Source of the DNA: Perkinsus olseni
Taxonomy: Eukaryota
Length of the DNA: 64,000 nt
Assembly: GCA_013115125.1 (NCBI GenBank)
Contig: JABANN010000020.1
Coordinates: forward strand, 62,001 to 126,000
Direction: 5' to 3'
Program-made: the position numbers and the translations under genes
Notes under the pieces: model-generated
Seen by the model: only the letters and a program-made list of their open reading frames with translations
Databases searched by the model: none
Told to the model about the DNA's origin: nothing
Shown: piece by piece, positions 1,832 to 64,000 of the stretch
Layout of the letters: each line of letters opens with the position of its first letter
Position numbering within the stretch: position 1 is the first letter of the stretch

Positions 1832-1885
1832 ATGTACTACTTGGTAATACAAGTAGTGTTACTATTGCTGCAACCAGCTCGAGCA
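1832..1885 (+). other. Predicted signal peptide of the giant protein
   Basis: MYYLVIQVVLLLLQPARA|WV: hydrophobic core followed by an A-x-A cleavage motif. An in-frame upstream ATG at 1790 is an alternative start. Confidence 0.75.
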
Positions 1886-4800
1886 TGGGTCCTCGTCGGA
1901 CGGGATGGGACCATCACCTTCCTCGGTCGAATAGAGATAGGTAGCTCCATAGCCCTCACAGTCGCTCTTCTTGCTGATCTCCTCTGTATCAGACGCCTCT
2001 GTGTCGGGGTCTGGCATCACATTCCGTCATAAAGGAGTTGGACTGTGGGATATAGTAGCAGCGGATGACATCAACTCCTTTGAGTAAGCTAACTCGAGGC
2101 CGGGGCGCTTCTCTGAGGGTGCTATTGAAAGATACGAGCAAGGGGAGCTGGGCTTTACCTCTACCAACAACCCTACGCCGGTAATGGCTCTACTGCGGAC
2201 TAGTAGAGGGATGGTTTTGGCGGGAAGCCTTTCTGTCAAAGGCCAAGCGTAAGGGAATTGATACCTTCATACCGCACCGGATGGCTCGCGTGCATTAATA
2301 GGCACTTCGACGAGAAGGCTACAGTGTATCAGGGCCTCGACATAAAGGCTGGGGAGTTCGAGATTCAGGATGCTCTTCATGTTAAGCGCCCGGATAGTGG
2401 ACTTGATACCACTACTACCTACATGGACATCAAGTCTGCTGAGGTATCCTCGAGAGCGGGGGACACCATCTTTAACGCTGGTCGTGTGTCTGTAGGTATA
2501 TTTATCGACACTCTCGATAGGGAAGTTCGTCTACATCCATGGCGATTTCGTAAGGGCATTGGGAGGCAAGGGGAGTGTTAGTGAGAGTGTCTATCAGGTC
2601 CCACCGGAGGACGTTGGACCATCACTATCGGTCAATGGGGCGACACAGCTACTGGGTAAGGCGACCTTTGAGAAGACTGTGGACATCAAGAAGAGGATGT
2701 CTGTGGAGGATTACGTACGGTCTCCTTCATATGCCTGAGTATTACACCCTCCCCCTTGGCAGATAGTAGCCGCCTCCTCACTGAGCGTTCGATCATTCGC
2801 CAACTTCGGCAGTCTAGTTGGTATAGCTGATCGACTGAATGTAAGGGAGCATCTCTGGGCGGGCTGTCCTACTGCTTGTTGCTGTAAGGTATTTGGCTAT
2901 CCTAGTGAGCCTGATAGGAACGGTGGTGTATCGGTCAATGACGTCACCAGACTGGGAGGGCCACTCAGTGTTGCATCATTCCCTGTCACCATCATGGGTG
3001 ATGCCATTCAGCACTCGCTGCTGATCATACCTTGGAAGTTCTCTCCTCAGGTACCGTATCCGTATTTAACAAGGTAGATGTTGGATCAACACTATCTGTC
3101 TACAACATGATGGGCCTGGGTTCGACAGTGTCCCTACGCTCCTATGCACGCATGGGGTCGTCCATCTCAGTGTACGTATCATCATCGCGAGCCTCTCTCG
3201 AACACCGTAAATGACTCCTACTTGCTTCTCAGGTACGGAGCGTCTCGCTTCGGCAGCTCCCTATCCGTATTTGACTTCGCCCAGATGGCGAGTTCCATAT
3301 CTCTACGGGCATATCTTCGTGTGGGAAGTACTATGTCCACCTGCGGCCTCATACGCTGTGGCAGCGCAGGATCTGTACTGGACTTCGTCAATATGGGTAG
3401 CGCTATGTCCGTAAGGAGCTTCACCAGGTTCGGTTCCTCGGCCAGTGTCTTCGGCGCGGCAAGGCTAGGGAGCCCCCTGAGTATTCTAGACTTTGTTAAT
3501 ATGGGTAGCAGTATGAGCATCCGCTCCTACAGTCGATTGGGCAGCGCAGTATCCATATTCGGCATGACCAGGATAGCCAGCTGTCTCTCAGTATTGGAGT
3601 ACGCCCATATTGGCTCTGCTGCGAGTATTAGAAACTTCCACAGGCTAGGCTCGGGCCTCTCTGTCTATGCCACTACCCGACTTGGCAGTAGCCTATCACT
3701 GCTGGACTATATTGGCTTCGGCAGTTCGCTCTCCATACGGTCCTATTCTCGATTGGGTAGTTCCCTGTCGGTATACTCTCGGGTGCTGTTCGGTAGTGCT
3801 ACCTCGACTATAGACCAGTGCAGTCTGGGATCAGCCCTGTCGCTGCGATCCTCTTGCCGTATGGGCAGCACTCTCTCCCTCTATTCGGTGGCACGCTTCG
3901 GTAGTTCTCTCTCCGTGATGGACTACGTCATGATGGGCAGTGTCCTATCGGTACGCAGCACCTCGAGGATAGGCAGTACCCTATCCGTCCTCAGCCTAGC
4001 TCGCTTCGGCAGCTCTATGTCCCTCCTTGATATGGGAGCCCTGGGCAGCGGTCTATCTCTGAGGTCACAGTGCCGTCTAGGGAGTATGCTATCAGTATTC
4101 AGTGGTACGAGGTTGGGATCGTCCCTGAGCATACTTGATTGCACTCATCATGGCAGCGGCCTGTCTATTAGGTCCTTCGCCAGGCTGGGCAGTAGTATGT
4201 CAGTATATGGTCTAGTTAGGTTAGGGAGCTCTCTCACCATCCTGGATAAGACTCGTCTGGGCAGCAGCGTATCGGTCAACTCGTTCGCCCGATGCGGGTC
4301 CTCGCTGTCGGTGTTCGGCCTGTCTAGGTTCGGCAGTGCTCTCTCTGTCCTCGACTACGTGCAGCTCGCCAGCTCTCTAACGCTGCGTACATTCGCCCGT
4401 CTAGGGAGCTCCTGCAGCATCTTCGGATCGGTAAGGTTCGGTAAGAGAGTATCCATGATCGACCACCTGACCATCGGTAGTAGCCTCTCTCTGAGGAACT
4501 ACATCAGGCTGGGCTCGAGCCTTAGTGTGTTCGGTGGTGCCCGGATGGGGCAGGCTATGAGCGTGGTGGACTTTGCTATGGTTGGCAGCTCCCTATCACT
4601 CCGGAGCGCCTTTAGGATGGGCAGTGCTCTCTCCGCCGTTGGGACGGCGCGTCTGGGTAGCAGCATGTCTATGCTGGACTTCCTGCAGCTCGGCAGCTCC
4701 ATGTCTCTGCGGAGCATGCAGCGCCTCGGCAGTGGTCTAAGTGCGTACAGCACGGCTCGCCTGGCTGGAAGCTTTTCCGTCCTCCACGCCGCTGATCTGG

Positions 4801-7800
4801 CGTCGTCGCTCTCTCTACGAAGCTTCTCCCGGCTGGGCAGTGCCCTCTCAGCCCTGGGTATCACTAGGGTTGGAAGTGCCCTCAGTGTGCTGGACTTTGT
4901 CAACTTGGGCAGCTCCTTATCCCTCCACGCCTTCTCTCGTCTGGGATCGGCTCTCTCTGTGTCTGGTCCACAGAGCATCGGCAGCTCTTTGTCGGCCCTC
5001 GGCTGTGTTGCCCTCGCTAGCTCCCTCTCCCTGCGTACCTTCGGTAGGTTGGGCAGTGCCATGTCCGCCTATGGACTCGCCCGCTTGGGTAGTGCCCTCT
5101 CCACCTTGGAGTGGTGTACCCTAGGGAGCTCCCTTTCCCTCAGGACCCTCCTCAGGGTCGGCAGCACTCTCTCTGTCTTTGGCTCTACTCGCTTTGGTAG
5201 CTCCATGTCTATCCTTGACTTCTCGCATCTTGGTAGCGCCCTGTCACTACGATCCACCGCAAGGCTTGGCAGCTCTACCTCAGTCCTAGGGTTGGCTAGA
5301 CTCGGCAGCTCCTTATCGACTGTGGGAGCCGCTCACTTGGGCAGCTCATTATCGCTCAGATCTTCGCAGCGCCTAGGTAGTGCTCTATCCGTCCTCGGCA
5401 ATGCACGCTTCGCCGGCAGCTTCTCCCTGTTGGACTATCTTGCCCTTGGCAGCAGCTTGTCCGTGAGGCAACATGCTAGATTGGGTAGCTCCTTATCGAT
5501 CTTCCAAGTTCAAAGGCTCGGTGGGTCTCTTACCGTACTAGACTTTCTTACTATGGGTAGTAGCTGCTCTATGAGAGCCTTGGCTAGGCTGGGCAGCGGC
5601 GCTTCTCTATTCAGTATGACTAGGCTTGGTAGTGCTATATCAGTATTGGACTACGTTACTCTGGGCAGCTCTCTATCTCTACGGTCAACCTTCCGTTTGG
5701 GCAGCACCACCTCAGTGTATGGTACCATCAAAGCGGGGGCCAGCCTGTCCTCCCTGAGCTACGCAAGGCTGGGAAGCTCACTATCAGTCAGGTCGTTCAG
5801 TCGTCTTGGCAGCCAGGTTTCTACATTCGCGGTAGCCAGGTTCGGCAGCTCGTTGTCAGCTCTTGATTGGGCCGATCTCGGCAGCTCAGTATCCCTGAGG
5901 AGCTTCGCTAGGCTATCTTCGTCTCTCTCCATCTGGGGTATAGCTAGGGCTGGCAGCAGCCTTTCTGTGCTGGGGTACGCCCAGATGGCCAGCTCATGCT
6001 CAGTACGCTCCCTGTCAAGGTTTGGTAGTGCGGCCTCTGTGCACAGCATAGCCCGCTTCGGTAGTGCCGTGTCCATGTTGGCCAGGATCCACCTTGGCAG
6101 TGCCCTCTCCCTGCGCAGCTTCGCCCGTATGGGCAGCAGCGTGTCCATCTTCGGCCTTAGTTCTCTTCGCGCTGCCACTGCCGGTGTCACCGTCCTCGAC
6201 TATACTACTCTCGGCAGTTCGATATCGACACGCTGCTTTGGAAGGATGGGCTCGGCTATGTCCGTCCTCGGCCTTACCAGGGTCGCATCGACAGTATCGG
6301 TGCTGGATTTCGTTAGCATGGGCTCGGCTATCTCCCTGTCCAGATTCCAAAGGCTAGGCAGTGCCTTGTCTGTCTTGGGCCGTGCACGCTTGAGCAGCTC
6401 AGTGTCTGTCCTGGACTATGTCCATATAGGTAGCTCTGCCTCTCTACGAGCCTTCAGCAGAGTGGGCAGCTCAGTATCAGTACTGTGCCAAGCCCGTCTG
6501 GGTCACCAGCTGTCCGCGCTAGACGGCACCCATCTTGGCAGCAGTCTTTCCTTGAGAGGGGTTGCCAGGTTGGGCAGCTACGTCTCTGTATACGATACTT
6601 CAAGGTTGGGCAGAGGCCTCTCAGTCCTCGACTTCCTCCACCTTGGCAGCACCACCTCCATGCGAGCCTTGCTACGCATGGGCAGCTCTCTCTCCATGTT
6701 CGGTTCTAGTCGCTACGGCAGCACTCTGAGTATCCTCGACGCTGCGACCCTAGGGAGTGGTTGCTCTCTTAGAAGCTTCCATCGTATGGGTAGCAGCTGC
6801 AGCCTATTCAGTCTCGCCCGTCTTGGCCATGAGGTGTCCGTACTCAACGCCGTGGCCCTCGGCAGTAGCTTATCTCTGCGTGCCTTATCGCGCATGGGCA
6901 GCGGTGTATCTGTCTTCAGCCTGTGTAGATTCGGCTCCTCACTGTCGGCTATTGACGTGGCGACCTTGGGTAGCTCGGTATCCATCAGATGCATGTCCCG
7001 CATGGGTAGCTGCCTGTCGGTATTCGGTCTGGTGAGGTTCGGCAGCACAGCCTCTGTGGCGGACTTCGCCACCCTGGGCAGTGCGTGCTCGCTGAGGTCC
7101 TACCTGCGCATGGGCAGCCAATGCAGCGTCTTCTCTATGAGTAGGCTTGGTAGCAACTTGAGCATCTTAGATATGACCGAGCTTGGCAGTACTATGTCTC
7201 TTCGTTCCTTCTCCCGCTTTGGTAGTACCATATCTGTCTATGGCCTAGGCCGACTCGGCAGTAGCATATCGGTCTTCGACTACCAGTCAGTCGGCAGCTC
7301 GCTGTCCATAAGGTCGTACATTCGACTGGGATCCTCGGCCTCCTTCTACGGCATGTCTAGGCTTGGCAGTTCCCTCTCCGTACTGGACTTCGTCAACATG
7401 GGTAGCGCTTATTCTATCCGTAACTACATTCGCCTCGGCTCTACTATATCGGTATTCTCTATGCAAAGGCTGGGCAGTACGGTATCGACACTGGACTTCA
7501 TTAATATGGGTAGTACCTTCTCGACTAAGAGCTTCGTCAGGCTGGGTAGCACCATCACAGCACTGGCAGTCGCAAGGTTGGGCAGCAGCCTTTCAACCCT
7601 GGGGTACGCGAGTGTTGGCTCGGCTTTGTCGCTACGGTCGGCCGTGCGACTGGGGAGCTCTCTCTCGGTGTTCGGCCTGTCTCGCCTTGCTAGTAGTGCT
7701 TCCATACTAGACTACACTGGTGTTGGCAGCACTCTGTCTCTCAGAGGTTTCTGCCGCCTAGGTAGTACGCTGTCTCTATTCAACCTGGCGCGTATGGGTA

Positions 7801-10800
7801 GTGCAGCCTCAGTGCTTGCCTTCGCTAATCTTGGTAGTAGCATCTCTCTCCGCTCTTACCTTCGCGTTGGTAGCGTGGCTTCGGTCTACTCCGCCACGAG
7901 GCTAGGTGCTGCTATGTCCGCTATGGAGTGCTCACTTTGTGGGAGCTCCCTCTCACTGAGACACTTCGGTCGGCTAGGCAGCTCTGTATCCGCCTTCTCC
8001 GGCGCCAGGCTCGGTCTCTCTCTATCTGTGCTTGACTTCCTGCAACTGGGTAGCTCATTATCGGTGAGGAAGGGAGCTCGCCTAGGGTCAGCTGTGTCGG
8101 TTTATGGCCGTAGTCGGCTGGCTATGTCCGCATCGGCCCTGGACTACCTGCATCTGGGGAGCACTTTGTCCCTTAGGGGCGTTAGTAGACTCGGCAGCTC
8201 AGTATCAGCAATATCTGTGGCTCGGCTGGGAGATGCCCTTACTGTCCTGGCGGCTAACACTCTAGGAAGTAGCCTCTCCTTGAGGAGCTTTGCTAGGGTT
8301 GGTAGCAAATTGACAGTCCTGGACTTCGCCAACTACGGCAGCAGCCTGAGTCTTCGTGGTGCTCTCAGAGCAGGCAGTGGTATATCGGTCTTCAGTACAG
8401 CAAGGTTCGGAGCTACATTGTCCGTGCTAGACCGGCTCAGGCTAGGAAGCTGTATCTCCGTGAACTCCTTCGCTAGGCTGGGTAGCACGATATCGGTGTA
8501 TGGGTGGGCCAAGCTAGGTGATACTCTCAGTGCTATTGGCAGCGTGGAGATATCATCAGCCTTATCTCTCCGCTCTCTCATGCGTATGGGTAGCGCCTGT
8601 TCTCTCTATCAAGGCTGTCGACTGGGCGCCGAAGCATCCGTCCTGGACTTTATGGCTATGGGGTCGGCTCTCAGTGTCCGGGCCTTCAGTAGGCTGGGCA
8701 GTAGCGCCTCCCTCTTTGGTCTTGCCCGATTCGGCAGTAGCCTCTCGGTATTGGACTATGCTACTTTCGGCAGCTCTTGCTCTATTGGTAGCTTCCTCAA
8801 GTTGGGAAGTAAGATATCAGTCTTTAGCCTAGCAAGACTTGGCAGCTCTATGTCTGTGCTTGACTATGTCGGTTTGGGCAGCTCTTTCTCTCTTCGATCC
8901 TATGGTCGTATCGGTAGTACTATGTCCCTCTTTGGCCGTAGTAGGTTGGGGTCTAGTGTATCGCTACTGGACTATGCCCAGTGTGGCAGTACCCTCTCCC
9001 TGCGTAGCATGCTCAGGCTTGGCAGCGTCTTTTCCGTCTACAACCTTGCCCGTATGGGCTCCGTGGTGTCGGTCCTGGACTTCACTGGCCTGGGCTCGTC
9101 TGTCAGTGTGCGGTCGTATATTAGACTAGGGAGCACCTTATCGGTCTTTGCCAAGATGGCTGCTGGGAGCGCCGTGTCCATCCTAGACGTCTCGAGCCTC
9201 GGTAGTGCATTGTCGCTGCGGAGCTTCTACCGTCATGGCAGCACCGTGTCATTGTACAGCATAGCCTGCCTTGGCAGTACCATAAGTATGTTCGACGCTG
9301 TTACCCTGGGAAGTACTCTATCACTTCGATCGGTTGCCAGGTTGGGCTCTGAGGCATCGGTCTGTGGGAGGACTAGATTCCAGCAGCAGATGTCCATACT
9401 AGACTGTCTACAGCTTGGGAGTAGCCTTTCCGTGAGATCTGTATTCCGTCTTGGTAGCCATCTCTCGGTGTTCGGTAGTGCCCGGCTCTCAGCCAAGATG
9501 TCGGTGCTAGACGGTATGACGGTGTCGTCAGCCCTATCCCTTCGTGGCTTCAGCAGGCTTGGTAGTACACTGTCAGTCTTTTCTACTGTACGGGCCGGTG
9601 ATAACCTCTCCGTCTTGGGCTGGCTTCGGATGGGCAGCACAGCTTCAGTAATCGACCGAGTGTCCTTGGCCAGCTCTCTCTCACTGCGCAGCCTGGCTCG
9701 TCTGGGCAGCAAGGCGTCGGTCTTGGATTACCTCAGCCTTGGCAGTTCTCTGTCGCTCCGTGGGGTGAGTCGTCTTGGTAGTTCAGTCTCGGCATTCGGT
9801 GTCACCCGGCTCGGCAGGTCACTATCAGTACTAGATAGCCTCACCTTGGGGAGCTCCCTCTCTCTTCAAGCCTTCATGAGATTTGGCAGCTCCCTCTCAT
9901 GCTACGGCCAAGCCAACTTTGGGGTTAAGGTCTCCTGTGCAGGCGTGCTGGAGTTCGGTTCGTGTATGAGCGTTCGCTCCTATACTAGGCTGGGCAGCTC
10001 ATGCTCTGTCTTTAGTATATCGAGAGTGGGCAGCTCCTTATCGGTGCTGGACTGGCTTACGCTAGGCAGCTCACTCTCCGTCCGCAACCTTGTGCGCCTC
10101 GGCAGTGACCTCTCCATCGTTGCCCGCCAACGCCTGAGCAGCAGCCTTTCTGTAATGGACTTGGTCGAGCTAGGCAGCGGCCTGTCCATTAGAGCTATCT
10201 CGAGGTTGGGGAGTAGCCTGTCAGCCCTGGGATGGGCTAGGTTTGGCGACTCGATCACTGTTCTCGGCAAGAGCAACTTCGGTAGCTCCCTGTCTCTACG
10301 GACCTTCGCTCGCCTCGGTAGCACCGCGTCAGTGTTCAATAGGGTACACCTAGGTGACTATTTCTCGGTTTTATCAACGGCCAGGCTGGGCAGTCACTTG
10401 TCAGTGCTCGACTATGCTACCATGGGTAGCTCACTGTCCATACGCTCCTTCACTTCCCTGGGTAGTGCTGCATCGATTCTTGACTACCTCATGCTGGGCA
10501 GCACATTATCGGTGCGCCACAGCTGCAGGCTCGGCAGTGACCTCTCGGTCTTTTCCGTGTCCCGCATTGGCTCAGCTCTATCGGTGCTGGATTTCCTCAA
10601 CCTGGGCAGCACGGCATCTCTACGTTCCATCATGAGGCTGGGCTCGACATTCTCCGTTCAGGGATGGACCAGGCTTGGCTTGACTGTCTCTGTCCTTGAC
10701 CATGTGTCCTTGGCTAGTTCGATGTCGCTGCGGTCTATGATGAGGCTAGGCAGTGAGCTATCCCTCATGGGCATGGCTAGGTTCGGCAGTACCATGTCAT

Positions 10801-13800
10801 CGCTGGACAGTGTTGCGATGGGGTCTGCCCTGTCCTTGAGATCAGCTGCTAGATTTGGTTCCTCCACAAGTGTATTCTCCGTGGCCCGTCTGGGATCGAC
10901 AATGTCCGTGCTGGACACGGTGGCTTTGGGGAGCGCTCTTTCCCTCAGAGGCTTCGCTCGGTTTGGCAGCAACTTGTCGGTGCACGCGGCGCTTCGTTTC
11001 GGCTCATCAATGTCGCTGGTGGATTGCTCGACCCTGGGCAGCAGCTTGTCCATTCGGGCCAGCTCTCGCCTGGGTAGCGGACTGTCCATGCTGTCGCTGG
11101 CCAAGGTTGGCAGTACACTCTCTGTGCTTGACTTCGTCACTCTCGGCAGTAGCCTGTCGTTGCGAGCCTTCACGAGAGTTGGCAGCACCCTATCTGCCTT
11201 CGCGCGGACTGCTGTTGGCCATGCTCTGACGGTGCTTAGCGAGGGCCATCTCGGTAGCACTATGTCTCTACGCTCATTCTCCCGCCTGGGCAGCACTCTA
11301 TCGGCCTTACGTAGCGTGCGCTTTGGTGACTCTCTGTCCCTCCTTGACTTCGGCCATTGTGGAAGCGCCATTTCCATTCGGAATCTAGTACGGCTTGGCA
11401 GTACCCTCTCCACACTCTCCCAGGTCAGGATTGGGGCGTCCATCTCAACCCTATCCTTCGCTAGTATGGGCTCCGCAATGTCCCTAAGGTCAATGGTCAG
11501 GGCAGGCAGCAGCCTCTCGCTGTACAGCCTCACTAGGCTCGGTAGTGCCACCTCTATCCTCGACTATGCTACCTTCGCCAGTACAGTATCCCTTCGTTCT
11601 TTCGCCCGCCTGGGGTCGACATTATCGTCCTTTGCGATGGCTCGTCTAGGAAGTGGTGTATCCGTTATGGAGTGGGCTACTCTGGGTAGTTCCATCTCTC
11701 TGAGGTCCTACGCTAGAGCAGGCAGTAGAGTCTCTGTCATCGGTCTGGCACGCTTCGCCTCTCACGTGACTGTATTGGACTTCCTGCAGCTTGGCAGCTC
11801 GCTCTCCCTTCGTGACTTCGTACGGCTGGGGAGCTCGTGCTCCTTGCTGGGTCTGTCAAGACTCGGATCCTCGGCCTCCATTCTTGACTATGTCACAATG
11901 GGCAGCGCACTGTCCCTACGCAGCTACATCCGCTTCGGCAGTAACCTCTCTGTGGCGTCTTTGGCCCGACTTGGCAAGTCCCTCACTACCCTAGACTGCA
12001 ATACCCTGGGCAGTGTCCTCTCACTACGAGGTTTCTCCCGATTTGGCAGTGCCGTATCGGTGTTCTCCTCTCTAAGGTTCGGCAGCACTCTATCCTTGCT
12101 GGACTTCGGTACCTTCGCCAGCTCCTTGTCAGTGAGGTCCATGACACGGCTAGGGAGTGGTATCTCGGCCTATGGCATCGCTCGCTACGGACAGAGCATG
12201 TCGGTCCTCGACTTCATCGCGGTGGGATCATCGCTATCAGTCCGGGCGACTGCTAGGGTGGGCAGCTCCCTCTCTGCCATGGCCACCACACGTTTGGGAT
12301 CTACTATGTCCGTCTTGGATGCTATTGGTTTGGGTAGCTCCCTCTCTCTGCGCTCGTTTGTGAGGTTCGGCAGCAACCTGTCGGCCTGCGGGTACCAGAG
12401 GCTACATGGAGAGCTCTCGATCCTTGATGCGGTCAAGTTTGGCAGTAGCCTCTCTTTGAGGTCGTTCGTCCGGCAAGGCTCGTCACTGAGTATATTCTCC
12501 CATACTAGGGCTGGGGCGAGCCTTTCTGTTCTTGACACTGCGATCTTCGGTAGCTCTCTCTCACTGAGGTCTTTCTCGAGGCTAGGTAGTGCCATGAGCT
12601 GCTTTGGGATGGCTCGACTCGGCAGCACTCTAAGCGGCCTTGACCATGTCCACTTGGGCAGCATGATCAGCGTTCGCTCCACCGCGCGTCTTGGGAGTAC
12701 CCTCTCGGTGTACAGCGTGTCACGGCTCGGCAGCGGCCTCTCAGTCCTTGGCTGGAGTACCCTCGGCAGCAGCCTCTCTCTGCGGGGAATGATGCGCTTC
12801 GGCAGTGGTCTCTCTGTCTACAGTACGACCAGGTTTGGCTCCGTCATCTCCGTCCTAGATGCCGTGTCTTTGGGGAGTACCCTCTCCGTGAGAGCCTTCG
12901 CCAGGGCTGGCAGTACCGTGTCGGTGATTGCCTCAACGACCATGGGCAGCATTGCCTCTGTCCTTGATGCCACTTCCCTTGGAAGCTCCTTCTCTCTGAG
13001 GTCCTTCTGTCGGTTTGGCTCAGCCATCTCCATGCTCTCCAAGACTAGGATGGGCGAGAGCCTCTCAGTGTTGGACTACACCCACCTTGGCAGCTCGGTA
13101 TCGATCCGTTCAGCCTTGAGGTTGGGCAGTGTAGCATCTATCCTGTCCAGTATGAAAATGTCCAACACTCTGTCGGTCATGAACTTCACGGCCCTTGCTA
13201 GTTCCCTCAGTCTGCGATCGACCATCCGCCTCGGCAGCAGCCTGTCCCTCTTCGGTGCATCGCGGCTGGGGAGCAGCGCATCCGTGCTCGACATGGTAAA
13301 CTTCGGAAGCGCGGTATCGTTGAGGGAATTTGTGAGGTTCGGATCGTCCCTCTCGACGGTGTTGGGCACGAGACTTGGAAAGGATCTGTCTACCCTTGAC
13401 TGCACGTTGCTTGGCAGCTCCCTATCCCTTCGGGGCCTCGTACGCTTCGGCAGCTCAGTGAGCGTGTTAACCCAAACGAAGTTAGCTTCGTCATTGACAG
13501 TGATGGACTTCGCTGTCTGTGCAACTTCATTATCAGTGCGGTCGGTTCTACGACTCGGCAGCAGCGTCTCTGCTCTGTGTGCCACCAGACTGGGCGATTC
13601 GCTCACAGCACTGTCTTGGGCCAACCTAGCCAGCTCGCTCTCCTTGCGGGCAGCTTGCCGTCTCGGGTCAACTCTCTCCTTACACTCTATAGTTCGTTAT
13701 GGCTCCTCGGCCTCTCTCTTGGACCAGAGTGTCCTTGGCAGCTCCTTGTCGCTCCGCAGCTTCGCAAGACTGGGCAGCTCGGTCTCTACTGTGAGTACTG

Positions 13801-34800: not shown

Positions 34801-37800
34801 GCGTTTGTCGGCTCGGCAGCAGTGTTTCCTCTTTCGGCCTTGCCCGTCTGGGATCTGTTTACAAGTTGAGCGTCATCGCGTCTGTGGACTTTGGTAGCAG
34901 TCTTTCTCTAAGATCAGCTGCCCGTCTCGGCAGTAGCCTATCCGTCTTCGGGTCTGGTCAGATCGGCAGTGCTCTGAGCATACTAGCCAGCACCTCCTTT
35001 GGGTCCTCCACTTCTGTTCTGGACCAGGTCGCAGTCGGCAGCTCTCTGTCACTGCGCAGCTTCGCTCGGCTAGGGAGCAAGTCCAGCGCACTTGACTTTG
35101 TACTGCTGGGAAGCACTCTATCCCTCAGAAGTCTTGCTAGGCTGGGCAGCGTGGCATCGGTCTACGGCCTCAGTCGGCTGGGCGACTCGTTGTCGGCCCT
35201 TGGACTGGTCGGCTTGGGTAGTTCGCTATCCGTCAGGAGCTTCAGCAGGCTCGGCGGCAAGGTCAGCCTCTGGGACTTGTCATCCATTGGCAGTTCTCTG
35301 AGTGTGAGGAGCCTGGCTCGCTTCGGCAGCACAATCTCGGTAACCTCGCTTCTCCGCTGCGGCTCTGTCTACTCACTGTCCATTATAGCCTCTACGTCTC
35401 TAGCGAGCTCACTGTCTCTAAGACAGTTCGCGCGGCTGGGCAGCGGCTTCTCTGTCCTCGGGAGCACCCGCCTCTCAGAGAGGATTTCTGTGCTTGACTC
35501 GACTGACCTCGGTAGCTCCCTCTCGCTCCGCAGCTTCTGCCGTCTGGGAAGCAAGCTGAGTATAGTAGACTTGGCTACACTGGGCAGCTCTCTGTCCGTG
35601 AGGTCTGCGGTGAGGATCGGTAGCTCGATATCTGTTGCTGCCTCTTCCAGACTCGGTGCTACCCTGTCTACTCTCAGCGAGACGGTATGCGGCAGCTCTC
35701 TGTCATTGAGGAGCTTTGCTCGTCTTGGCAGCCTACTGACCGTGTTCGACCACGGACTTCTCTCGAGTAGTCTATCACTGAGAGGCTTCGCAAGGCTTGG
35801 CAGTACTTTGTCGGTGACCGGTGTAGCAAGAGTAGGGTCCCTCTACACAGTCTCAGCCTACGGTGCAGTCACCTTGGGCAGCTCTTTTTCACTCAGGAGC
35901 TTTGCTCGATTGGGCAGCAGCCTCTCTGTCGCTACCTCTGGGTGCTTCGGCTCTGCAGTATCTGCACTGTCCCTAAGTCGTTGCGGCGGTACTATATCCT
36001 CACTCGGATTTGCTTCCTTTGGTAGCTCTCTGTCCATACGGTCTTGGGTGCGCCTCAGCGGTCGCCTAAGCATACTGGACATGTCGTCGTTCGGCAGCAC
36101 TCTCTCGTTGCGCTCCGCTGCTAGACTTGGATCGGGTCTCACGGTTCTCGGTATGGCAAGTATCGGTAAATCGCTCTCTGCCATCGAGGCTGTGGCTTTG
36201 GGCAGCAGCCTCTCTCTGAGGTCTGCTTGCCGACTGGGCAGCTCCGTGTCCATTCTGTCCGCCATACGTGCTGGTTCATCTCTCTCCGTGTTGGATCGAA
36301 TCACGCTCGGTAGCTCGGTGTCTCTGCGCTCGTTCAGCCGATTCGGCTCCAGCCTGTCAGTCCTCGACGTATCGGTCCTCGGTAGCTCTATGTCCATGCG
36401 GGCATTCCTTCGCGTGGGAAGCGCGTTTTCTCTATTCGATGGGGCGAGGCTGGGCTCTTGTATCTCGCTGGTCAGCTATGCTACCCTCGGAAGTTCAATC
36501 TCCTTGCGCAGTTTCGCGAGGATGGGCTCCAAACTCTCGGTCATCGACGACGTAGAGATCGGCAGCAGCCTGTCTTTGCGCAGCTTTTCAAGGCTGGGTA
36601 GCACGGTGACAGTCTTACAGCGGGCCACTCTAGGCTCGGCCTTATCAGTGCTGAGCCAAACCAGCATGGGCAGCTCGCTCTCTCTGAGATCCTTCTCCCG
36701 CTTTGGGTCACGACTAAGCGTTCTGGATTCCCTCAACCTCGGAAGCTCTCTGTCCCTCCGCAGCTTCGCCAGATTCGCCAGCTCCCTCTCGGCGTTGAGC
36801 TCCGGCCAGTTTGGCCGCCGCTTGAGTGCTGTAGAGCAAGCGCACTTCGGCAGTTCCTTGTCGTTGAGAAGCTTGGCCCGGTTAGGCAGCAAAGTTTCTG
36901 TTCTGGACTTGGCCCACTTTGGAAGCGCACTCTCAGTTCGCTCATTCACCCGAGTTGGTGCCCGCTTCTCTGTACTGGACGAGGTAGAGATCGGCAGTAC
37001 CCTATCCCTACGGTCATTTGCTCGTCTGGGCAGTGGAGTGTCTATGCTCGGCCTGCTACGGACAGGTTCTGTCTACTCAGTCTCTACTCTGGCAGAGGCC
37101 ATCCTTGGCAGCTCCTTGTCTCTCCGGAGCTTCGCTAGACTCGGCTCTAAGGTCTCGGTTCTCGACTTTGTCCACCTCGGCAGCAGCCTCTCCCTGCGTT
37201 GCAGCACCAAGATAGGGTCTCAAATATCCGTGTTGTCCAAGGCCTCACTCTCTGCCCAGCTCACTGTGCTTGACCATGCTAATATCGGCAGCAGTATGTC
37301 CATCCGCGCCATGGCTAGGCTTGGATCGGGCCTATCGATCTTCTCTAATGCTCTAGCGGGCTCGTCTGTATCGATATACGGCAAGTCCTACATGCAGTCG
37401 TCGGCATCTGTTGTCGACTCGGTGTCGTTCAGTAGCTCCCTCTCTCTGAGGAGCTTCGCGAGGCTTGGCAGCACCGTATCTGCTCTAGATTGTGTTACTC
37501 TAGGCAGCACGCTCTCGCTACGAGGATTTGGCCGCCTTGGCAGTGGAGTGTCGATCCTCGGCCTTGCTCGAGTAGGCTCTGTTTACAAGCTCTCGGCAAT
37601 CGATGGTGCACAGTTCGGCAGTTCTTTGTCCTTGAGGTCTTTTTCACGGTGTGGATCGAAGCTGTCGGTCTTCGACTTCGCTCAGCTTGGGAGCAGCCTC
37701 TCCATCAGGGCTCTCTTCCGGCTTGGGTCGAGCTTCTCTGCCGTGTCCAATTCTAGGATCGGCGCTGTTGCCTCGATCGTAGACCACGTCATGATAGGCA

Positions 37801-40800
37801 GTTGCATGTCCCTGCGTGCGGCTGCTCGCCTTGGCGGTGCCCTTTCGGTGGCATCTAAGACTCTGCATGGCGGAGTTATGTCCGCGGCTGATGCTGTACA
37901 GCTATCAAGTTCTGTATCGCTGAGGTCATTCGCTAGTCTCGGCGGTAAGCTCTCGATGTTCGACCTCGCTAACCTGGGCAGCGCTTTATCTCTCCGGGGA
38001 TTTGCTCGTTTCGGCAGCACCGTGTCCGTGTTCGACAAGAGCCAGCTTGGTAGCACCCTATCGGTCCTTGACGCCACGACGCTCGGCAGCTCGCTGTCGG
38101 TGAGGATGCTAGGCAACCTTGGCTCATCTCTGTCCGTCTACGACTTCGGCTCAATGAGCAGCTGCTTGTCATTACGACATGCTGCTCGGTTGGGTAGCGG
38201 AATCTCCATCCTCGGTCTGGCTAGAGCAGGTAGCGTGTTCAAGCTCTCGTTAATCGACATGGCGGCCATTGGCAGCTCGGTGTCCATGAGAGGGTTCGCT
38301 AGATTTGGCAGCAGCATCTCTATATTCGGCCTCACTCGCACCACTTCTATGTACAGTGCAAGCATAGTCAACATGGCCCACTGCGCGAGCAGCCTATCCC
38401 TGCGGAGCTTCGCTCGACTAGGCAGCGGTCTGTCGGTTACCGGCCTCAGCCGGTTGGGTTCCATCTACTCTCTGTCCACAATAAGCACCGCATCCTTCGC
38501 TAGCACCCTATCCTTGCGGTCAATCGGTCGACTTGGAAGCTCTATATCGGTGTATGGCCAGTCTAGGTTCGGTACCGGTGGTGTCTCCGTCTGTGACTCC
38601 ATCACTCTATCGAGTTCCGTCTCTCTCCGATCCTTCGCTAGGACAGGCAGCTCCATATCTGTCGCCGGTAGCAGCGGTGTGGCCGGTACCCTCTCGGTAA
38701 TGCTTGCTTCCAACTTGGGAAGCGCGTTATCTCTGAGGTCCTTCGCAAGGCTAGGAAGCTCTCTGTCACTCTACAGTGGTCTCGTCGCTCAGGGCGAACT
38801 CGAGTTTGGTGGCAGCCTATCGGTGGCGGAGTTCGTCAACTGTGGATCATCTCTGTCTATGCGCAGCTTCGCCCGCTTCGGCAGTATTGCTAGCGTTGTG
38901 GACTGTGTCAACCTCGGCAGCTCCTTGTCACTCAGAGCGTATGCTAGGCTTGGCAGCTCAGTATCTGTAACCGGTGTCGTGCAGTCAAGCTCTGCTATGT
39001 CGGTGCTTGGCATGGCCCGTCTAGGCGACTCCCTCTCCTCAGTCGGGTACTCTACCTTGGGCAGCTCCATGTCGCTCCGCAGCTTCGCCAGACTTGGGAG
39101 CAAGCTCACGGTGGTAGACTGCGCTGCTCTAGGCAGTTCACTGTCTCTGCGCTCCTACGTCCGTCTCGGCTCAGCCCTATCGGCAGCCGAAAGTGCCCAC
39201 ATCGGCAGTACACTGTCTGCCCTGTCGTCAGCAAGGCTCGGGTCAGCGCTCTCCTCTCTCGATGCCGTATCCTTCGGCAGTGCCATCTCCATCAGATCCT
39301 ACGGTCGTTTAGGCAGCAAGTTGTCTGTCTTGGACTTCGTGACCTTCGGCAGTGCACTGAGCCTGCGAACCTCGCTGCGTATCGGCAGCGGTATCTCCGC
39401 AACTTCTGGTCTTCTGCTAGGTGGTAGTTTGTCCATTATCCAAGCAGCCCACTTCGGCAGCACCCTCTCTCTGCGTTCGTCTGTCAAGATCGGAGCTAAG
39501 CTGTCCGCCCTGGGCCTCGGCCATCTCGGAAGTTCTCTATCTCTGAGGAGCGTAGCTCGGTTGGGAAGCGGCCTGTCTGTTGTTGGCATGCTACGAATGG
39601 GCTCCCTCTATGCCTTGAGTGCAATAGACTCGGCGGTGTGCGGCAGCTCGATCTCCATGAGGTCCTTTGCTCGCCTCGGTAGTGGGATATCCATCACTTC
39701 CATAGCCCGCGTGTGCGGCGTCACTTCCTCCCTTGGAGCAGTCCACGCTGGCTCCACGCTCTCCGCTCTCAATACGGCTTACTTTGGCGGAGCGATCTCG
39801 GCCCTGAACACTGCTCGATTTGGCGACATTCTAAGTGTTGTAGACGCCACGGAGCTGGGGAGTTCGCTGTCCTTAAGAAGCTTCGCTCGCTTCGGCAGCT
39901 CGTGTTCGGTAACCACAGGGTCATCTCTCGGTGAGTCCCTCAGCGTTTTGGGCAGCGCTCATCTCGGCAGCTCCCTGTCGCTACGATCCTTCGCCAGACT
40001 CGGCAGCTCCGTATCTGGTGTTGGAGCGGTGCGACTAGGCGAGCAGGTCTCGGCCCTCTCGCATGCACGCATCGGTAGCACGCTATCTGTCCTTGAAGGA
40101 GCCAACGTCGGCAGCTCGCTGTCTCTACGATCTTTCGCGCGTATTGGCAGCTCCATCACTCTGGGATCTGGTGCCCGTATAGCTAGCGGCATCTCAGCCA
40201 CTCAGGTGGCTCGCTTCGGCAGCGTTCTCTCTACTCTGGCTGAAGCCTCTCTTGCTAGTACTCTGTCCCTGCGTTCATTCGCCCGCCTCGGCAGTTCTAT
40301 CACTATCACGAGCGGCGGAGCGATTGGTGGCGATGTGTCCGCTCTGGGCTTCAGTCGACTTGGTGATACCCTCTCTGTCCTCGGCGCGAGCTCTCTAGGA
40401 AGCTCCTTATCTCTTCGGAGCTTCGCTAGATTGGGCAGTGCCATATCCGTTACGGGGGTAGCCAATACGGGCTCTGCCATTTCTGCAGTCGGTGCTGCTC
40501 GCCTCGGCTCTAGTATGTCCTTGCTGGGCATGGGTGCCCTGGGCAGCTCCCTATCACTGAGAGGATTCTTCAGAATCGGCAGTAGCTTGTCCGTAGATGG
40601 TCTCACGCGGATCGGTTCTACCGCTTATCTATCTGCTGTCGATGCGGTGGCTTTCGGAAGTACCTTGTCGTTGAGAAGCTTCGCCCGTCTGGGCAGCGCT
40701 GTATCTGTGGCAGGAGCTGGAGTAATGGCAGGGCAGCTCTCCGCTCTCTCCTCTATCCGCTTGGGTAGCAGCCTATCAGTGCTGGACTTCTCTGGCTTTG

Positions 40801-43800
40801 GCAGCTCGCTGTCCATACGATCCTTCGCTCGCCTTGGTAGTGGAGCATCCCTCACAGCGGCCGCAGCCCTCGGCAGTTCTGCATCCGTCTTGGGCACAGC
40901 TCGTTTCGGGGGTGGTGTCTCCCTCTTGGACCTCGGCAACTTCGGCAGCTCCCTATCCCTGCGTAGCTTCGCCCGGCTGGGCAGCTCACTGTCACTCCGC
41001 TCTAGGGCAGAGATGGGCTCTTCACTATCTGCGTTATCCCATACCCGAGTTGGAGCCACTCTCAGTGCCCTGGATATGGTATCGTTGGGGAGCTCAATCT
41101 CTATGAGGGCCTTCGCTCGCATCGGAAGCTACGTCTCCGTGGTCTCCAGCGGTCAACTTGGCAGTAGCCTCTCAGCACTGTCGTGTGCCAGAGTTGGCGA
41201 TACTTTATCCGTCTTGGACTCTGCTGTGTTCGGTAGCAGCTTGTCCATCCGAGACTTCCTCAGACTTGGCTCGGCCCTTTCGGTTGTTTCCACAACCAAT
41301 CTGGCTTCGACGGTCTCGGCCCTCAGTACTACCCGCCTTGGCCAGTCGCTATCGGCAGTCGACTTCACCTCGTTGGGAAGCTCTCTGTCACTGCGAAGCT
41401 TCGCCCGGTTCGGCAGCGGAATGTCCGCTACTGGGTTGATCCGTTTGGGATCTGCATTCAAGCTCTCGGTCGTGGACTGCACTACTCTTGGGAGCTCTCT
41501 ATCCCTCCGATCCGCGGCTCGAATCGGCAGCGCGTTATCGGTCTTCTCACCACTCACAACCGGAAGCCAATTGTCAGCCTTAAGCTGCAGCCGATTGGGG
41601 AGCACACTGTCCACGGTAGATGCTGTGTGCCTCGGCAGCTCACTATCTCTGCGAAACTTCGCCCGGCTGAGCAGCTCAGCCTCCGTCGTTGGTCGCATCC
41701 ACAGCGGGGATGCATTCTCCTCTCTGAGTTACGCTAGGGTTGGCGGAGCGTTGTCGACCCTGGATGCGGTCAACTTCGGCAGTGCCCTGTCCATCAGGTC
41801 GTTCGTACGCGCTGGTAGCTCTATATCAGTAGCGTCAGCATCCAGCATGGGTAGCACACTGTCTGCGCTCGGTACCACCCGGCTCGGCGCCTCCATCAGC
41901 GCCCTCAGCCATACTTCCTTTGGATCCTCGCTTTCACTGCGCAGCTTTGCGAGGATCGGTAGCGGTGCATCTCTCGTTGGTACAGCGGCGATTGGATCGT
42001 CTGTATCGATCATTGCTCATGCTCGATTCGGAGAGAAGTTGTCAGTGCTAGACAGGGTAGCCTGTGGTAGCTCATTATCTCTGAGGAGTTTCGCTCGCCT
42101 CGGCAGCAGTCTGTCCTCGGCAGGAGGAGCCCTCCTTGGTGATACCTGCTCGGCTGTGAGCTTAGTCAGGCTAGGCGGGGCTGTCTCTACCATCGATATG
42201 GGCACTCTGGGGAGCTCCCTGTCGCTGCGAGGCTTCGCAAGGTTCGGGAGCAGCATCTCCGTCACCGGTCTAGCGCGGTTTGGATCCCTCGGTGAGACGT
42301 CCATAAGCGGAACTGCCAGCTTCGGCAGCAGCCTCTCTTCTCTCGGAACTGTGCGGTTCGGCTCCTCGTGCTCAGCCCTGGACTTTGTAGCACTCGGTTC
42401 TGCATTATCACTCCGTGCTTTCGCGCGGGTTGGCAGCGGAGTTTCCGTCCTTGGCCAGAGCAGGCTGAGCGGCGCTCTTACCATCCTTTCTCTGGGCAAT
42501 CTCGGCAGTTCCTGCTCGCTCAGGGCCTTTGCTAGGCTTGGCAGCGCTATTTCGGTCACTGGAGTCGCGAAGCTTTCCAGCACCTTATCCGTCGTGAGCA
42601 CTTCACGGTTATCGGGCTCAATTTCCGTACTAGACTGCACCACCTTGGGCAGTGGCTTGTCCTTGCGATCATTCGCTCGTTTGGGGAGCGCCGTTTCAGT
42701 GGCATCAGCGGCTAGAGTATCTGACGCGCTGTCGATCACGGCTACTGGCCGCTTCGGTAGCTCTCTCTCTGCTTTGGACGCAGCTCAGCTTGGCTCCTCC
42801 GTATCCATGCGCTCGTTCGCGCGGTTCGGCTCGGCCCTATCGGTCGTCAGCACCACCTGGGTGGGTTCAGCTCTATCTGTATGCGCTCATGGTCGCTTCG
42901 GCGAGAAACTCTCAGCTCTGGATGCAACTGCACTGGGTAGCAGCCTGTCACTCCGCAGTTTTGTGAGGCTCGGCAGTAGCCTATCGGTCATCTCACCCGT
43001 GAGAGTTGGTAGTACTTGCAGTGTACTATCCACGACTAGACTGGGCGCTGATCTGTCGGCATTGTCTCATAGCATGCTTGGCAGTTCTCTCTCTTTGCGA
43101 GCATTCGCTCGATTGGGTAGCGGGCTGAGTGTAGCCGGGCTGGCTCGTCTAGGCTCCCTCTATAAGCTCTCCGTGGCAAGCTCAGCTGAGCTCGGCAGTT
43201 CGCTGTCTTTGAGATCATTCTCGCGCCTTGGCAGTTCTCTATCGGTCAGCGGCGTCGTAAGAGCTGGTTCCAGTCTCTCAGCAATGGCTAATGTCAGATT
43301 TGGTACCTGGCTTTCCGTTCTTGACGCAACCTGTCTGGGGAGCTCACTCTCGTTGAGGGCCATCGTGCGCTTCGGGAGCGACGTCTCAGTCGCTGGTGGT
43401 ACGAGCATGGAGGGGTCGTTGTCAGCCCTCAGCTTTACCCGGCTTGGTGACACACTATCAACCATCGGAGCGGCTAACATTGGTAGTTCACTTTCCCTTC
43501 GCTCTATGATGAGGCTCGGTAGCGGCGTGTCCATTACCGGTCTGGCACGACTGGGCTCTGCTTACAAGCTATCTGTGGTGGATTCTACAATGATGGCAAG
43601 TTCCATCTCTTTGCGCTCGTTCGCGAGGTTTGGATCTTCGCTGTCTATCCTCGAAGCAGCCAAGATATCCTCGGCAGTCTCGGCCCTCGGCATCGGGCGC
43701 TTTGGTAGCCATGTGTCCGTGCTCGACTCGGTATCATTCGGCAGCGCTCTGTCTTTGAGAAGCTTCGCCAGACTTGGCAGCAGCTTGTCCATCCTTGGTG

Positions 43801-44903
43801 TGGCGCAAACAGGATCCGCACTGTCCACCCTAGGCGTTGCTCGTCTTGGAGCAACACTCTCTGCTCTGGACGCTGTATGCTTGGGTAGCTCAGTATCTCT
43901 GCGAGCTTTTGCCAGAGTTGGTAGTTCGGTATCCGTCGTTGGCCCGGCTTCCCTCGGGTCTGCACTGTCGGCTATAGGCTACGCTCGGCTGTCCGACACG
44001 CTGTCCGTCCTGGGCGCGTCCTCCTTCGGCAGCTCCCTATCCTTGCGGTCCTTTGCCCGCCTTGGTAGCTCAGTCTCGCTACTAGAGGCTTGTCGAATTG
44101 GCAAGACACTGTCAGTCGTGGACTCGATCACTTGTGGCAGCTCATTGTCCCTACGGAGCTTTGCTCGCCTGGGCAGCTTCGACCTCTACGCCGGGAGCGC
44201 ACGAGTCATTTCGGCTACATCAGATCAGACAGGCCACCTTCATGGTAAGTCTGATGAACCTTTCACGGCTCTCTCACACCGCTTTAGCCGTTGTTGGCAG
44301 CTCATGTGACATGCTTTCAGGTACGTGGCAAGTTGATGTTGCTCTGACAACTTCCGACCGTCGTTTGAAAGAGCGCATTATTCCATTGAAGCGATCACTG
44401 GCTTCAACGACGGCAGCAGCAGGACAAGTTGAGGACGAGAAGCAGATTGGCGAGTGGCTCCTTAGAGAGCTTAGGCCAGTTGCTTTCGACCTGAAGGATG
44501 ACAAAGATCACAGAACCCGATTCGGGTTCATCGCTCAGGTAAGAATGATGTATCTTTCATCTTTATGTACTCAGTGGATTCCTGTGGCTGCCTTAATTTC
44601 CTATAGGTAGTAAATCACAGTTCTCCTTCTCAGGACCTGGAGCATATCCTACCGGAGGTTGTCCACACACATTCTTCGGAACCAGAGTCCAGCGAGGATG
44701 ATCTCTCTGCCGGCCGATTGAAGTCGGTTCTTTACCAAGACTTAATTGCAGTTCTAACTGTGGCCCTGCAAGAACAGCAAGCCACAATACAGTCACTCAC
44801 GGCGAATCTAACAGCCCTCACGGATGAAGTCCGAGATCTGAGAGCACAGCTCGACGAGCGGATACGAGTGCTGGAAGAACATGCCGGTTTGACCGCTCGA
44901 TAA
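1832..44903 (+). CDS. Giant secreted beta-repeat fibre protein with C-terminal peptidase S74 / intramolecular chaperone autocleavage (ICA) domain, ~14,145 aa
   Basis: Manually spliced exons: 1832-1940, 1993-2083, 2132-2248, 2302-2443, 2496-2549, 2598-2714, 2763-2840, 2889-2997, 3051-3171, 3233-44244, 44321-44538, 44634-44903. All 11 introns are GT-AG and in phase, and the exons total 42,438 nt (14,146 codons including TAA). The 13,721-aa ORF in the track is the giant exon plus out-of-frame and intronic ends. Confidence 0.9.
3051..44177 (+). repeat. Coding tandem array of ~1,140 degenerate 12-aa (36-nt) units
   Basis: The translation shows recurring GSSLSLRSFARL, GSxxSVxGxARL and GSSLSVLDxxxL units. 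Synonymous codons vary between copies, Pro is rare, and there are no stops in the giant exon. Confidence 0.97.
44353..44903 (+). other. Peptidase S74 (endosialidase-chaperone / ICA) domain plus terminal coiled coil
   Basis: Spliced sequence TT-SDRRLKERI...LRELRPVAFDLK...RFGFIAQ|DLEHILPEVV...SVLYQDLIAVLTVALQEQQATIQSLTANLTALTDEVRDLRAQLDERIRVLEE. It matches the S74 motifs SDxxLK, GFIAQ and PEVV and the trailing helix. Ser at 44353, Lys at 44368. Confidence 0.9.
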
Positions 44904-57855: not shown

Positions 57856-57983
57856 GAGGGTAAGGTCGAAGGAAACTGCCGAGGACGGAAGAGGTCCGGA
57901 TAAGAACGGGTGTGCAGGGACAACGTCGATCGCATTCGAGCGCAGAACATGAGTCACCATATACTGTACATGATCACAGCTCT

Positions 57984-63026: not shown

Positions 63027-64000
<974 letters not shown>

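Follow-up and report, generated by a model that had tools for sequence, protein, structure and literature searches.

A giant GSxxSx7-repeat protein with a C-terminal Peptidase_S74 domain in Perkinsus olseni is a probable precursor of a TLP-12-type fibril

The closest described system to the locus analyzed here is TLP-12, which came from a freshwater pond and was found as free fibrils. In the available portion of the preprint describing its cryo-EM structure (bioRxiv 10.1101/2025.09.30.679562), TLP-12 is a glycosylated trimer with C3 symmetry, built of GSxxSx7 repeats that each rise 9.6–9.7 Å and bear glycans at positions 2 and 5. As TLP-12 candidates the same source names Amoebophrya proteins of ~20,000 aa that carry an ICA domain at the C-terminus, such as UniProt A0A8J1ZHD7 of Amoebophrya sp. 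[quoted passage not shown] For the fibril class it names predicted proteins only, and it leaves function and producer open. Our literature searches found no other publication on this repeat family, and none joining endosialidase with Perkinsus, Amoebophrya, a dinoflagellate or a chromerid. A further eukaryotic S74/ICA protein is MYRF, which reportedly uses the ICA domain for trimerization and self-cleavage.

We analyzed a window of 64,000 nt from P. olseni (assembly GCA_013115125.1, contig JABANN010000020.1, positions 62,001–126,000), in which one plus-strand frame, 3144–44309, runs for 13,721 codons without a stop and has a composition of 25% S, 17% L and 11% G. This frame contributes the tenth of 12 exons to a ~43-kb gene at 1790–44903 (plus strand, as are all features below). 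The predicted precursor of 14,159 aa agrees with the ~14,000-aa product proposed by an earlier, sequence-only reading of this DNA, and would be among the largest proteins known. The 5′ part of the gene model is taken from one 8,877-nt spliced contig of run X7 (record 9), which was compared with the window up to 4300 and, if collinear throughout, would extend to ~11,000. Within the compared range, nine introns appear as GT..AG joints; X7 is RNA by guess only, the evidence used being the joints themselves, and the same nine intervals are retained in the DNA runs X1 and X8. The first base of the contig, at 1682, sets the 5′ untranslated part at 1682–1789, and the transcript start possibly lies elsewhere. 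Run X10 has coverage at 1300–1443 only, outside the gene.

Exon 1 (1790–1940) holds two in-frame ATGs, at 1790 and 1832. The sequence-only reading had started the protein at the latter, which is also the start of the P. olseni models P0129 and P0156, but the Met codon at 1790, in the same frame and 14 codons further 5′, opens the gene model used here. Exons 2 to 9 follow at 1993–2083, 2132–2248, 2302–2443, 2496–2549, 2598–2714, 2763–2840, 2889–2997 and 3051–3171, and introns 1 to 9, each a joint in the X7 contig, occupy 1941–1992 (52 nt), 2084–2131 (48 nt), 2249–2301 (53 nt), 2444–2495 (52 nt), 2550–2597 (48 nt), 2715–2762 (48 nt), 2841–2888 (48 nt), 2998–3050 (53 nt) and 3172–3232 (61 nt). 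The last of these joints, 3171>3233, one of the two that the sequence-only reading had named as tests of its model, is thus present in spliced form. Exon 10 (3233–44244) measures 41,012 nt and encodes the dodecapeptide array up to residue 13973 (nt 44171), followed by a 35-residue linker. Intron 10 (44245–44320, 76 nt, GTAAGT..CAG, phase 1) and intron 11 (44539–44633, 95 nt, GTAAGA..CAG, phase 0) flank exon 11 (44321–44538), and exon 12 (44634–44903) closes with a stop codon at 44901–44903, exactly the gene end that had been proposed. Both 3′ introns follow the GT..AG rule and keep the frame, and sequence comparison places conserved motifs across both junctions: an HGxW motif crosses the intron 10 junction and is conserved in 10 of 12 aligned homologues, and the motif at the intron 11 junction recurs in P0164, a spliced paralogue that matches PF13884 over positions 1–58 of 58. 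The claim of 11 canonical introns stands on two footings, with nine 5′ introns seen as joints and two 3′ introns predicted from splice sites, frame and the motifs of homologues and paralogue. These homologous junctions also support placing the S74 domain on the same chain as the array.

At the N-terminus, residues 1–32 (1790–1885) resemble a signal peptide with an A-R-A site, as judged by hydropathy and the A-x-A pattern only. Across the whole chain, 19-residue windows with a mean hydropathy above 2.0 are confined to this end, and the homologues P0083 and P0095 show a hydrophobic segment followed by the same conserved N-domain, which together favor the signal peptide originally suggested. The unique region of ~250 aa noted in the same reading corresponds to an N-domain of 265 aa between the signal-peptide-like start and the array; no Pfam family was found on it when it was scanned via the near-identical P0156 and the homologues P0083 and P0095. 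The N-terminus is near-identical to P. olseni models of 383–421 aa that end early in the array, indicating that public annotation truncates the gene, and the S74 end of one paralogue is annotated publicly as a 141-aa protein. Surveys of annotated proteins would consequently undercount and mis-size the family.

At the opposite end, the Pfam Peptidase_S74 profile PF13884 matches exon 11 alone above the gathering score (E 1.4e-8; score 35.4 bits, cut-off 22; profile positions 1–47 of 58), and positions 48–58 are located in exon 12, as in P0164. Exon 11 thus encodes the first part of the Peptidase_S74/ICA domain, and exon 12 its end and a helical, coiled-coil-like tail. Of the S74 domain with coiled coil that had been predicted, the former is borne out by this match, whereas the latter corresponds to weak, sub-threshold matches of exon 12 to coiled-coil families (E 0.002–0.14). 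A PDB sequence search with exon 11 returned designed coiled coils only (E 0.17–0.44). Ser14009 (44353–44355) and Lys14014 (44368–44370) lie five residues apart in an S-D-x-R-x-K motif, the spacing of the catalytic pair of S74 domains; the motif is aligned in 12 of 12 homologues, which had been selected for having it.

Between these ends, the array spans residues 298–13973 (13,676 residues), beginning with an initial GSxxS unit in exon 9 (from nt 3083), and comprises 1,139.7 dodecapeptides of the GSxxSx7 type, in keeping with the ~1,140 beta-type repeats counted before. Identity autocorrelation reaches 0.345, 0.366 and 0.404 at lags 12, 24 and 36, compared with ~0.07–0.15 elsewhere, and three unit types combine into a super-repeat of 36 residues. 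Exact GS..S motifs number 813, against 90.8 ± 9.3 (maximum 118) in 200 shuffles, and of the 812 distances from one motif to the next, 766 are multiples of 12. In phase-fitted 120-residue blocks, column conservation is 82% for G1, 77% for S2 and 89% for S5, with a further 5% T at position 5. At a lag of 36 codons, identity is 0.44, 0.58 and 0.31 at codon positions 1, 2 and 3, respectively; S2 is encoded by AGY in 667 of 810 cases and by TCN in 143, and S5 by TCN in 740 of 810 and by AGY in 70. The codon-position pattern and the use of both serine codon families at one repeat position point to selection at the protein level.

We consider it highly probable that the locus is a single expressed 12-exon gene for the precursor of a TLP-12-type fibril. 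The core of the sequence-only reading, a secreted chain that would trimerize via S74/ICA, fold into a triple beta-helix and form a filament of gene-determined length, is the best reading of its mechanism, and it has outside support because TLP-12 is a trimer of GSxxSx7 repeats and its candidates, in the available account, are giant alveolate ICA proteins. For the Perkinsus protein, we infer secretion, trimerization, cleavage and glycosylation as follows. A cleavable signal peptide would deliver the chain to the secretory pathway. By analogy with the S74 family and TLP-12, three chains would join via their C-terminal Peptidase_S74/ICA domains, and this association would nucleate folding of the GSxxSx7 repeats into an intertwined three-chain beta-helix. 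The ICA domain would cut itself before Ser14009 by means of the Ser14009-Lys14014 pair, releasing 151 residues, and repeat serines 2 and 5 may bear large O-glycans, as in TLP-12. The mature chain would comprise 13,976 aa or 1.42 MDa of protein; its computed mass of 1,420 kDa reproduces the earlier estimate of ~1.4 MDa per chain. Repeat number would directly set chain length, and, if the rod is built like TLP-12, 1,140 repeats at 9.6–9.7 Å would give ~1.1 μm, the upper bound of the length range first put forward.

An assembly artifact, or non-coding repeat DNA left open by chance, is hardly credible as an account of the array, and no observation spoke for it. Tandem Repeats Finder (TRF) detected no DNA tandem repeats in it, and the 41-kb array holds no exact DNA repeat of at least 28 nt, which argues that it was not created in assembly. 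The compared stretch is identical in a 46,365-nt contig from X1, which may be the window's own source, and both the spliced contig and the codon-position pattern, with the protein-level selection that it indicates, speak for a coding sequence. Quite unlikely, too, is an arrangement in which each chain forms its own left-handed hexapeptide beta-helix, with two hexapeptides per dodecapeptide and 18 residues per turn, and S74 bundles three such rods; if true, the rod would measure ~0.37 μm. Such a helix is suggested by weak matches of the array to Hexapep (E 0.0019) and, in a PDB sequence search that returned no TLP-12 chain, to GlmU and LpxA only (E 0.016–0.65), as well as by the automatic naming of two relatives as LpxA-like acyltransferases. 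All of these matches are below cut-off, however, with PF00132 reaching 18.3 bits (cut-off 27) over 1,414 aa of array, and the S74 domains of K1F endosialidase, T5 pb1 and MYRF follow trimeric intertwined beta-helices. The only solved GSxxSx7 fibril is likewise an intertwined trimer, according to the accessible portion of its report (bioRxiv 10.1101/2025.09.30.679562). AlphaFold2 monomer models of a 300-aa array piece (P0152) were of low confidence, with a pLDDT of 45 for the piece alone and of 56 when 44 other array segments were aligned to it. The latter model shows short strands throughout, at low confidence, and a Foldseek search with it gave no PDB match at E ≤ 0.001, the best being assorted beta-helices at E 0.3–7. 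A complex prediction with three copies of the piece scored 0.00, which counts neither for nor against a trimer.

The family is large: 1,087 representatives pass E ≤ 1e-3, of which 302 also pass E ≤ 1e-10, and both S74 motifs occur in 29 of the best 150 matches. P0002 and P0003 show the same repeat-then-S74 order in single proteins. A protein homologue search aimed at giant relatives returned only P0003 in the range of 2,101–5,000 aa and none in that of 4,950–15,750 aa. An origin by capture of a giant-virus fiber gene, or within an integrated viral element, with no host role, would accord with the nearest ESM Atlas clusters, which are unnamed and whose few labelled members are Nucleocytoviricota, and with matches such as P0004, P0008 and P0016, which lie on contigs of 64–748 kb and have 12-residue repeats and, in some cases, S74 motifs. 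The eleven short GT..AG introns, the splicing in X7, the presence of paralogues in P. olseni, for example the locus behind P0162 on a 170-kb contig, and the ordinary cellular neighbors (a methyltransferase, PRMT_C and a fragment of a serine carboxypeptidase) nevertheless render this origin very improbable, and an old transfer between virus and host, in either direction, may have taken place. As roles, the sequence-only reading had suggested a flagellar hair, an extrusome thread or an adhesion filament, and the present evidence is neutral on all three. That the fiber forms the flagellar mastigonemes of motile zoospores, and not a fibril that vegetative cells shed or carry at their surface or in their wall, is compatible with the secreted, trimerizing fibril precursor that we favor, since it concerns role and not mechanism, but we regard it as unlikely. 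A thin, stiff rod of ~1.1 μm would fit a flagellar hair, and Perkinsus zoospores carry hairs on one flagellum. Against this, the known mastigoneme proteins are, to our knowledge, unrelated to an S74 repeat fiber. In addition, TLP-12 was found free, with no flagellar link in the available portion of the preprint (bioRxiv 10.1101/2025.09.30.679562).

The present analysis provides a complete gene model, its 5′ part backed by a spliced contig, for a TLP-12-type member in a culturable alveolate, and this model supplies a predicted signal peptide, a conserved N-domain of no known family and a predicted cleavage site. On a speculative note, the gene may act as a ruler for a 1.1-μm sugar-coated rod that is displayed or shed, for example in zoospore flagellar hairs or a host-facing surface coat, with a GSxxSx7 and S74 module exchanged between alveolates and giant viruses, the latter carrying look-alike fibers of 12-residue repeats. 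The odds are against this wider proposal; if true, it would, Perkinsus being culturable, supply a first known producer for fibrils of the TLP-12 class and a function open to testing. The source organism is a parasite of shellfish, and the coat in this proposal would meet its mollusc host.

Several known systems share parts of this architecture. The repeat proteins P0004, P0008, P0016 and P0072, which are encoded on large contigs and are probably of giant viruses, also show a 12/24/36-residue periodicity with an L-S-V core, and some have a terminal S74 motif; they mostly lack the G-S pair, with 0–4 in-phase G[ST]xx[ST] spacings compared to 766 in the Perkinsus protein, measure 2,783–3,620 aa and contain other globular domains. 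MYRF is likewise a eukaryotic protein with an ICA domain, but in the Perkinsus protein this domain comes after a repeat array of 13,676 residues, the pieces scanned (the mid-array lying outside the scan) gave no Pfam match to a MYRF-type DNA-binding domain, and hydropathy indicates no MYRF-type transmembrane segment after the ICA domain. Phage tailspikes and fibers such as K1F endosialidase and T5 pb1 also place S74 at the extreme C-terminus behind beta-helical repeats, with the conserved Ser and Lys. The Perkinsus protein is ~10 times longer, and, unlike these, its gene is eukaryotic and spliced, and its product starts with a putative signal peptide and lacks an enzymatic or receptor-binding head.

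The sequence-only reading had found no characterized protein with this architecture to compare; this proved wrong, as the family is described in bioRxiv 10.1101/2025.09.30.679562, and the Perkinsus protein is, to judge from its sequence features, a new member of this recently described TLP-12-type family. In the available account, the TLP-12 candidates share the GSxxSx7 repeat with conserved G1, S2 and S5, more than 1,000 repeats per chain, a C-terminal ICA/S74 domain and an alveolate host. Since TLP-12 itself is pond-derived and has no assigned producer, the fibril encoded in Perkinsus may be distinct from it, though within its class. Compared by description, A0A8J1ZHD7 has as its Perkinsus counterpart a protein of 14,159 aa with 1,140 repeats and a 36-residue super-repeat, to which the present analysis adds, relative to the accessible portion of the preprint, the signal peptide, the 265-aa N-domain and the intron map.

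The dodecapeptide array lies almost entirely within exon 10 (3233..44244) of a 12-exon gene spanning 1790..44903 on the forward strand, where a single frame, 3144..44309 (+), is open over 13,721 codons. In its translation, Ser accounts for 25% of residues, Leu for 17%, Gly for 11% and Ala for 9%, Pro and Trp are nearly absent, and residue identity peaks exclusively at multiples of 12 (0.345, 0.366 and 0.404 at lags of 12, 24 and 36, compared with 0.07–0.15 at other lags). The array unit reads L-G-S-S-L-S-[LV]-[RL]-[SDG]-F-A-R, and alignment of 45 array segments of 300 residues resolved three unit types that form a 36-residue super-repeat. We counted 813 exact GS..S motifs in the spliced protein versus 90.8 ± 9.3 in 200 shuffles; 766 of the 812 spacings were multiples of 12, and column conservation was 82% for G1, 77% for S2 and 89% for S5.

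At the DNA level, TRF detected no tandem repeats in window 3,000–45,000 and no exact repeat of at least 28 nt occurs across the 41-kb array, so that unique read placement is possible; on this evidence the array is not an assembly artefact. Between units 36 codons apart, identity was highest at the second codon position (0.58), followed by the first (0.44) and the third (0.31), and serine is encoded by both codon families at S2 (AGY 667, TCN 143; n = 810) as well as at S5 (TCN 740, AGY 70; n = 810). The codon-position identities and the presence of both families at one repeat position are a signature of protein-level selection, and the array is genuine coding DNA. The 21 antisense ORFs of 154–372 aa within it (3144–44243, −) are most likely a side effect of biased repeat codons rather than genes. 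Separately, a 92,988-nt contig of DNA run X1 (record 6) carries 31–33-nt words of the array (window 3371–3401 and 4173–4205) at 59,623 and 79,154, i.e. approximately 19.5 kb apart, which hints at a second long array elsewhere in the genome.

To define the 5′ end, four sequencing runs were compared over window 1300–4300. An 8,877-nt contig of run X7, presumed to be RNA, starts at base 1682, has zero differing letters in the listed pieces and lacks nine GT..AG intervals of 48–61 nt on the forward strand (1941–1992, 2084–2131, 2249–2301, 2444–2495, 2550–2597, 2715–2762, 2841–2888, 2998–3050 and 3172–3232), all of which are retained in DNA runs X1 and X8. The 5′ model rests on this intron-less contig itself, whose last joint reproduces the 3171>3233 junction proposed in the sequence-only reading. 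The acceptor of intron 2 (2084–2131) in P0129, a P. olseni gene model, differs from that in the X7 contig and in the models P0154 and P0156, a difference of 11 residues that stems from either variant annotation or alternative splicing. Immediately upstream of the gene, window 1465–1498 looks like a dispersed multi-copy element, with very high X1 word depth (31-letter contigs at 550–650 versus 75 nearby) and diverging loose ends of X1, X7 and X8. Contigs of X7 and X10 span window 1300–1443 and both terminate at 1443, which may mark the end of an adjoining transcript upstream of the gene.

At the 3′ end, sequence and homologues predict two frame-preserving GT..AG introns on the forward strand, 44245–44320 (donor GTAAGT) and 44539–44633 (donor GTAAGA). 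Exon 11 alone scored 35.4 bits against Pfam Peptidase_S74 (PF13884), above the cut-off of 22, with E = 1.4e-8, bearing out the S74 domain first recognized from the sequence alone; the match covers profile positions 1–47 of 58, and the profile is therefore interrupted precisely at the end of exon 11. In an alignment of 12 homologues, picked from 29 having both S74 motifs, HGxW is conserved across the first junction in 10 and GFIAQ-[ED]-x-E crosses the second in all 12. P0164, a partial P. olseni paralogue with an identical splicing pattern, matches positions 1–58 of 58 (E = 4.1e-14), and in P0162, which models another paralogue copy with its introns read through, the match ends at 47 of 58, as in exon 11.

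Joining the 12 exons yields 14,159 aa from ATG 1790, or 14,145 aa from the previously chosen ATG 1832. Residues 1–32 resemble a signal peptide, with a basic start, a hydrophobic core and an A-R-A site, and no further hydrophobic segment was found in the whole chain. Residues 33–297 form an N-terminal domain for which no Pfam family was found in a scan of the near-identical P0156; in the homologues P0083 and P0095, the same domain likewise follows a hydrophobic segment. Next come 1,139.7 dodecapeptides (298–13973), a 35-residue linker (13974–14008), and the S74 domain with its helical tail (151 residues; 14009–14159), including Ser14009 and Lys14014 of an S-D-x-R-x-K motif. The predicted mature chain has 13,976 aa, 1,420 kDa and a pI of 11.5. 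AlphaFold2 monomer models of the array were of low confidence, and PDB fold and sequence searches returned nothing significant.

The spliced N-terminus matched P0129 (E = 1.8e-182), which represents a cluster of five Perkinsus olseni 'hypothetical proteins' (e.g. KAF4684016.1, KAF4749888.1); P0154 and P0156 share RNA-supported 5′ exons and then end at 383–421 aa via a spurious splice within the array. The homologue search found no array-related protein of 4,950–15,750 aa, and a HMMER scan no near-identical match to the last 1,200 array residues. Given the match to short models and the lack of a full-length relative in these searches, we conclude that the window comes from P. olseni itself or a very closely related species and that public models truncate the gene. 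Three paralogue S74 ends, P0162 (141 aa), P0164 (142 aa) and P0161 (142 aa), share 51–53% identity with exon 11, the first two being annotated as Perkinsus olseni; P0162, on a 170-kb contig with both introns read through, is listed as a 'Peptidase S74 domain-containing protein'. The genome probably harbors at least one additional giant gene of the TLP-12-like family. The reverse-strand genes downstream, a serine carboxypeptidase S10 fragment (47751–48149; E = 1e-6), a class I methyltransferase (56272–57960; E = 8.6e-15) and a PRMT_C domain (63073–63501; E = 2.9e-8), are ordinary cellular neighbours, and no glycosyltransferase was seen among the pieces scanned.

When the last 1,200 residues of the array served as query in a full HMMER scan, 1,087 representatives passed E ≤ 1e-3, of which 302 also reached E ≤ 1e-10 and 35 reached E ≤ 1e-30. 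Among the best 150 of the 1,087, 50 carry at least one of the two S74 motifs and 29 both, and P0002 (1,612 aa) and P0003 (2,175 aa) combine repeats and PF13884 within one uninterrupted protein. The strongest period was a multiple of 12 in 147 of 151 fetched proteins, and 61 of the 151 have at least five in-phase G[ST]xx[ST] spacings; the remainder include long proteins, on 64–748-kb contigs, with an L-S-V core lacking the G-S pair. The closest ESM Atlas clusters are unnamed, their few labelled members being Nucleocytoviricota. Five proteins of 2,783–6,952 aa (P0004, P0008, P0016, P0072 and P0122; contigs of 23–748 kb for those looked up) have 12-, 24- or 36-residue repeats built on an L-S-V or L-D-V core, and P0016 and P0072 terminate in an S74 motif. 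A dodecapeptide fibre may be common to giant viruses and alveolates.

The giant repeat-plus-S74 gene is confirmed by its open frame, 12-residue period, X7 joints and PF13884 match; direct support exists for the 5′ gene structure, the dodecapeptides, the Ser-Lys motif and the match to S74. By analogy with the TLP-12 family, the chain would enter the ER, and the ICA (Peptidase_S74) domain would drive trimerisation and template folding from C to N; self-cleavage N-terminal to Ser14009, O-glycosylation of S2 and S5, and export of the rod are likewise predicted. The proposed fibre mechanism stands in this family-based form, and the accompanying claim of an architecture unknown among characterised proteins does not, as a preprint already describes the family (bioRxiv 10.1101/2025.09.30.679562).

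That preprint was the only relevant work found on GSxxSx7 repeats. It reports TLP-12 as a pond fibril with a cryo-EM structure, a rise of 9.6–9.7 Å per repeat and large glycans at repeat positions 2 and 5; assuming a TLP-12-like build, 1,140 repeats at this rise would give a rod of 1.09–1.11 μm. Its named candidates are Amoebophrya proteins of about 20,000 aa that end in an ICA domain; the preprint also refers to approximately 150 candidates from six alveolate species or strains, with Perkinsus genomes cited, and states that no function is known for any of them (bioRxiv 10.1101/2025.09.30.679562). Judged by sequence, the giant protein has all the attributes by which the preprint defines the family, both having GSxxSx7 arrays and a C-terminal ICA/S74 domain. 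It appears to be a new, very large and hitherto mis-annotated member of a fibre family described in 2025, with 14,159 aa and 1,140 repeats compared with 19,853 aa and 1,263 repeats in the Amoebophrya candidate A0A8J1ZHD7.
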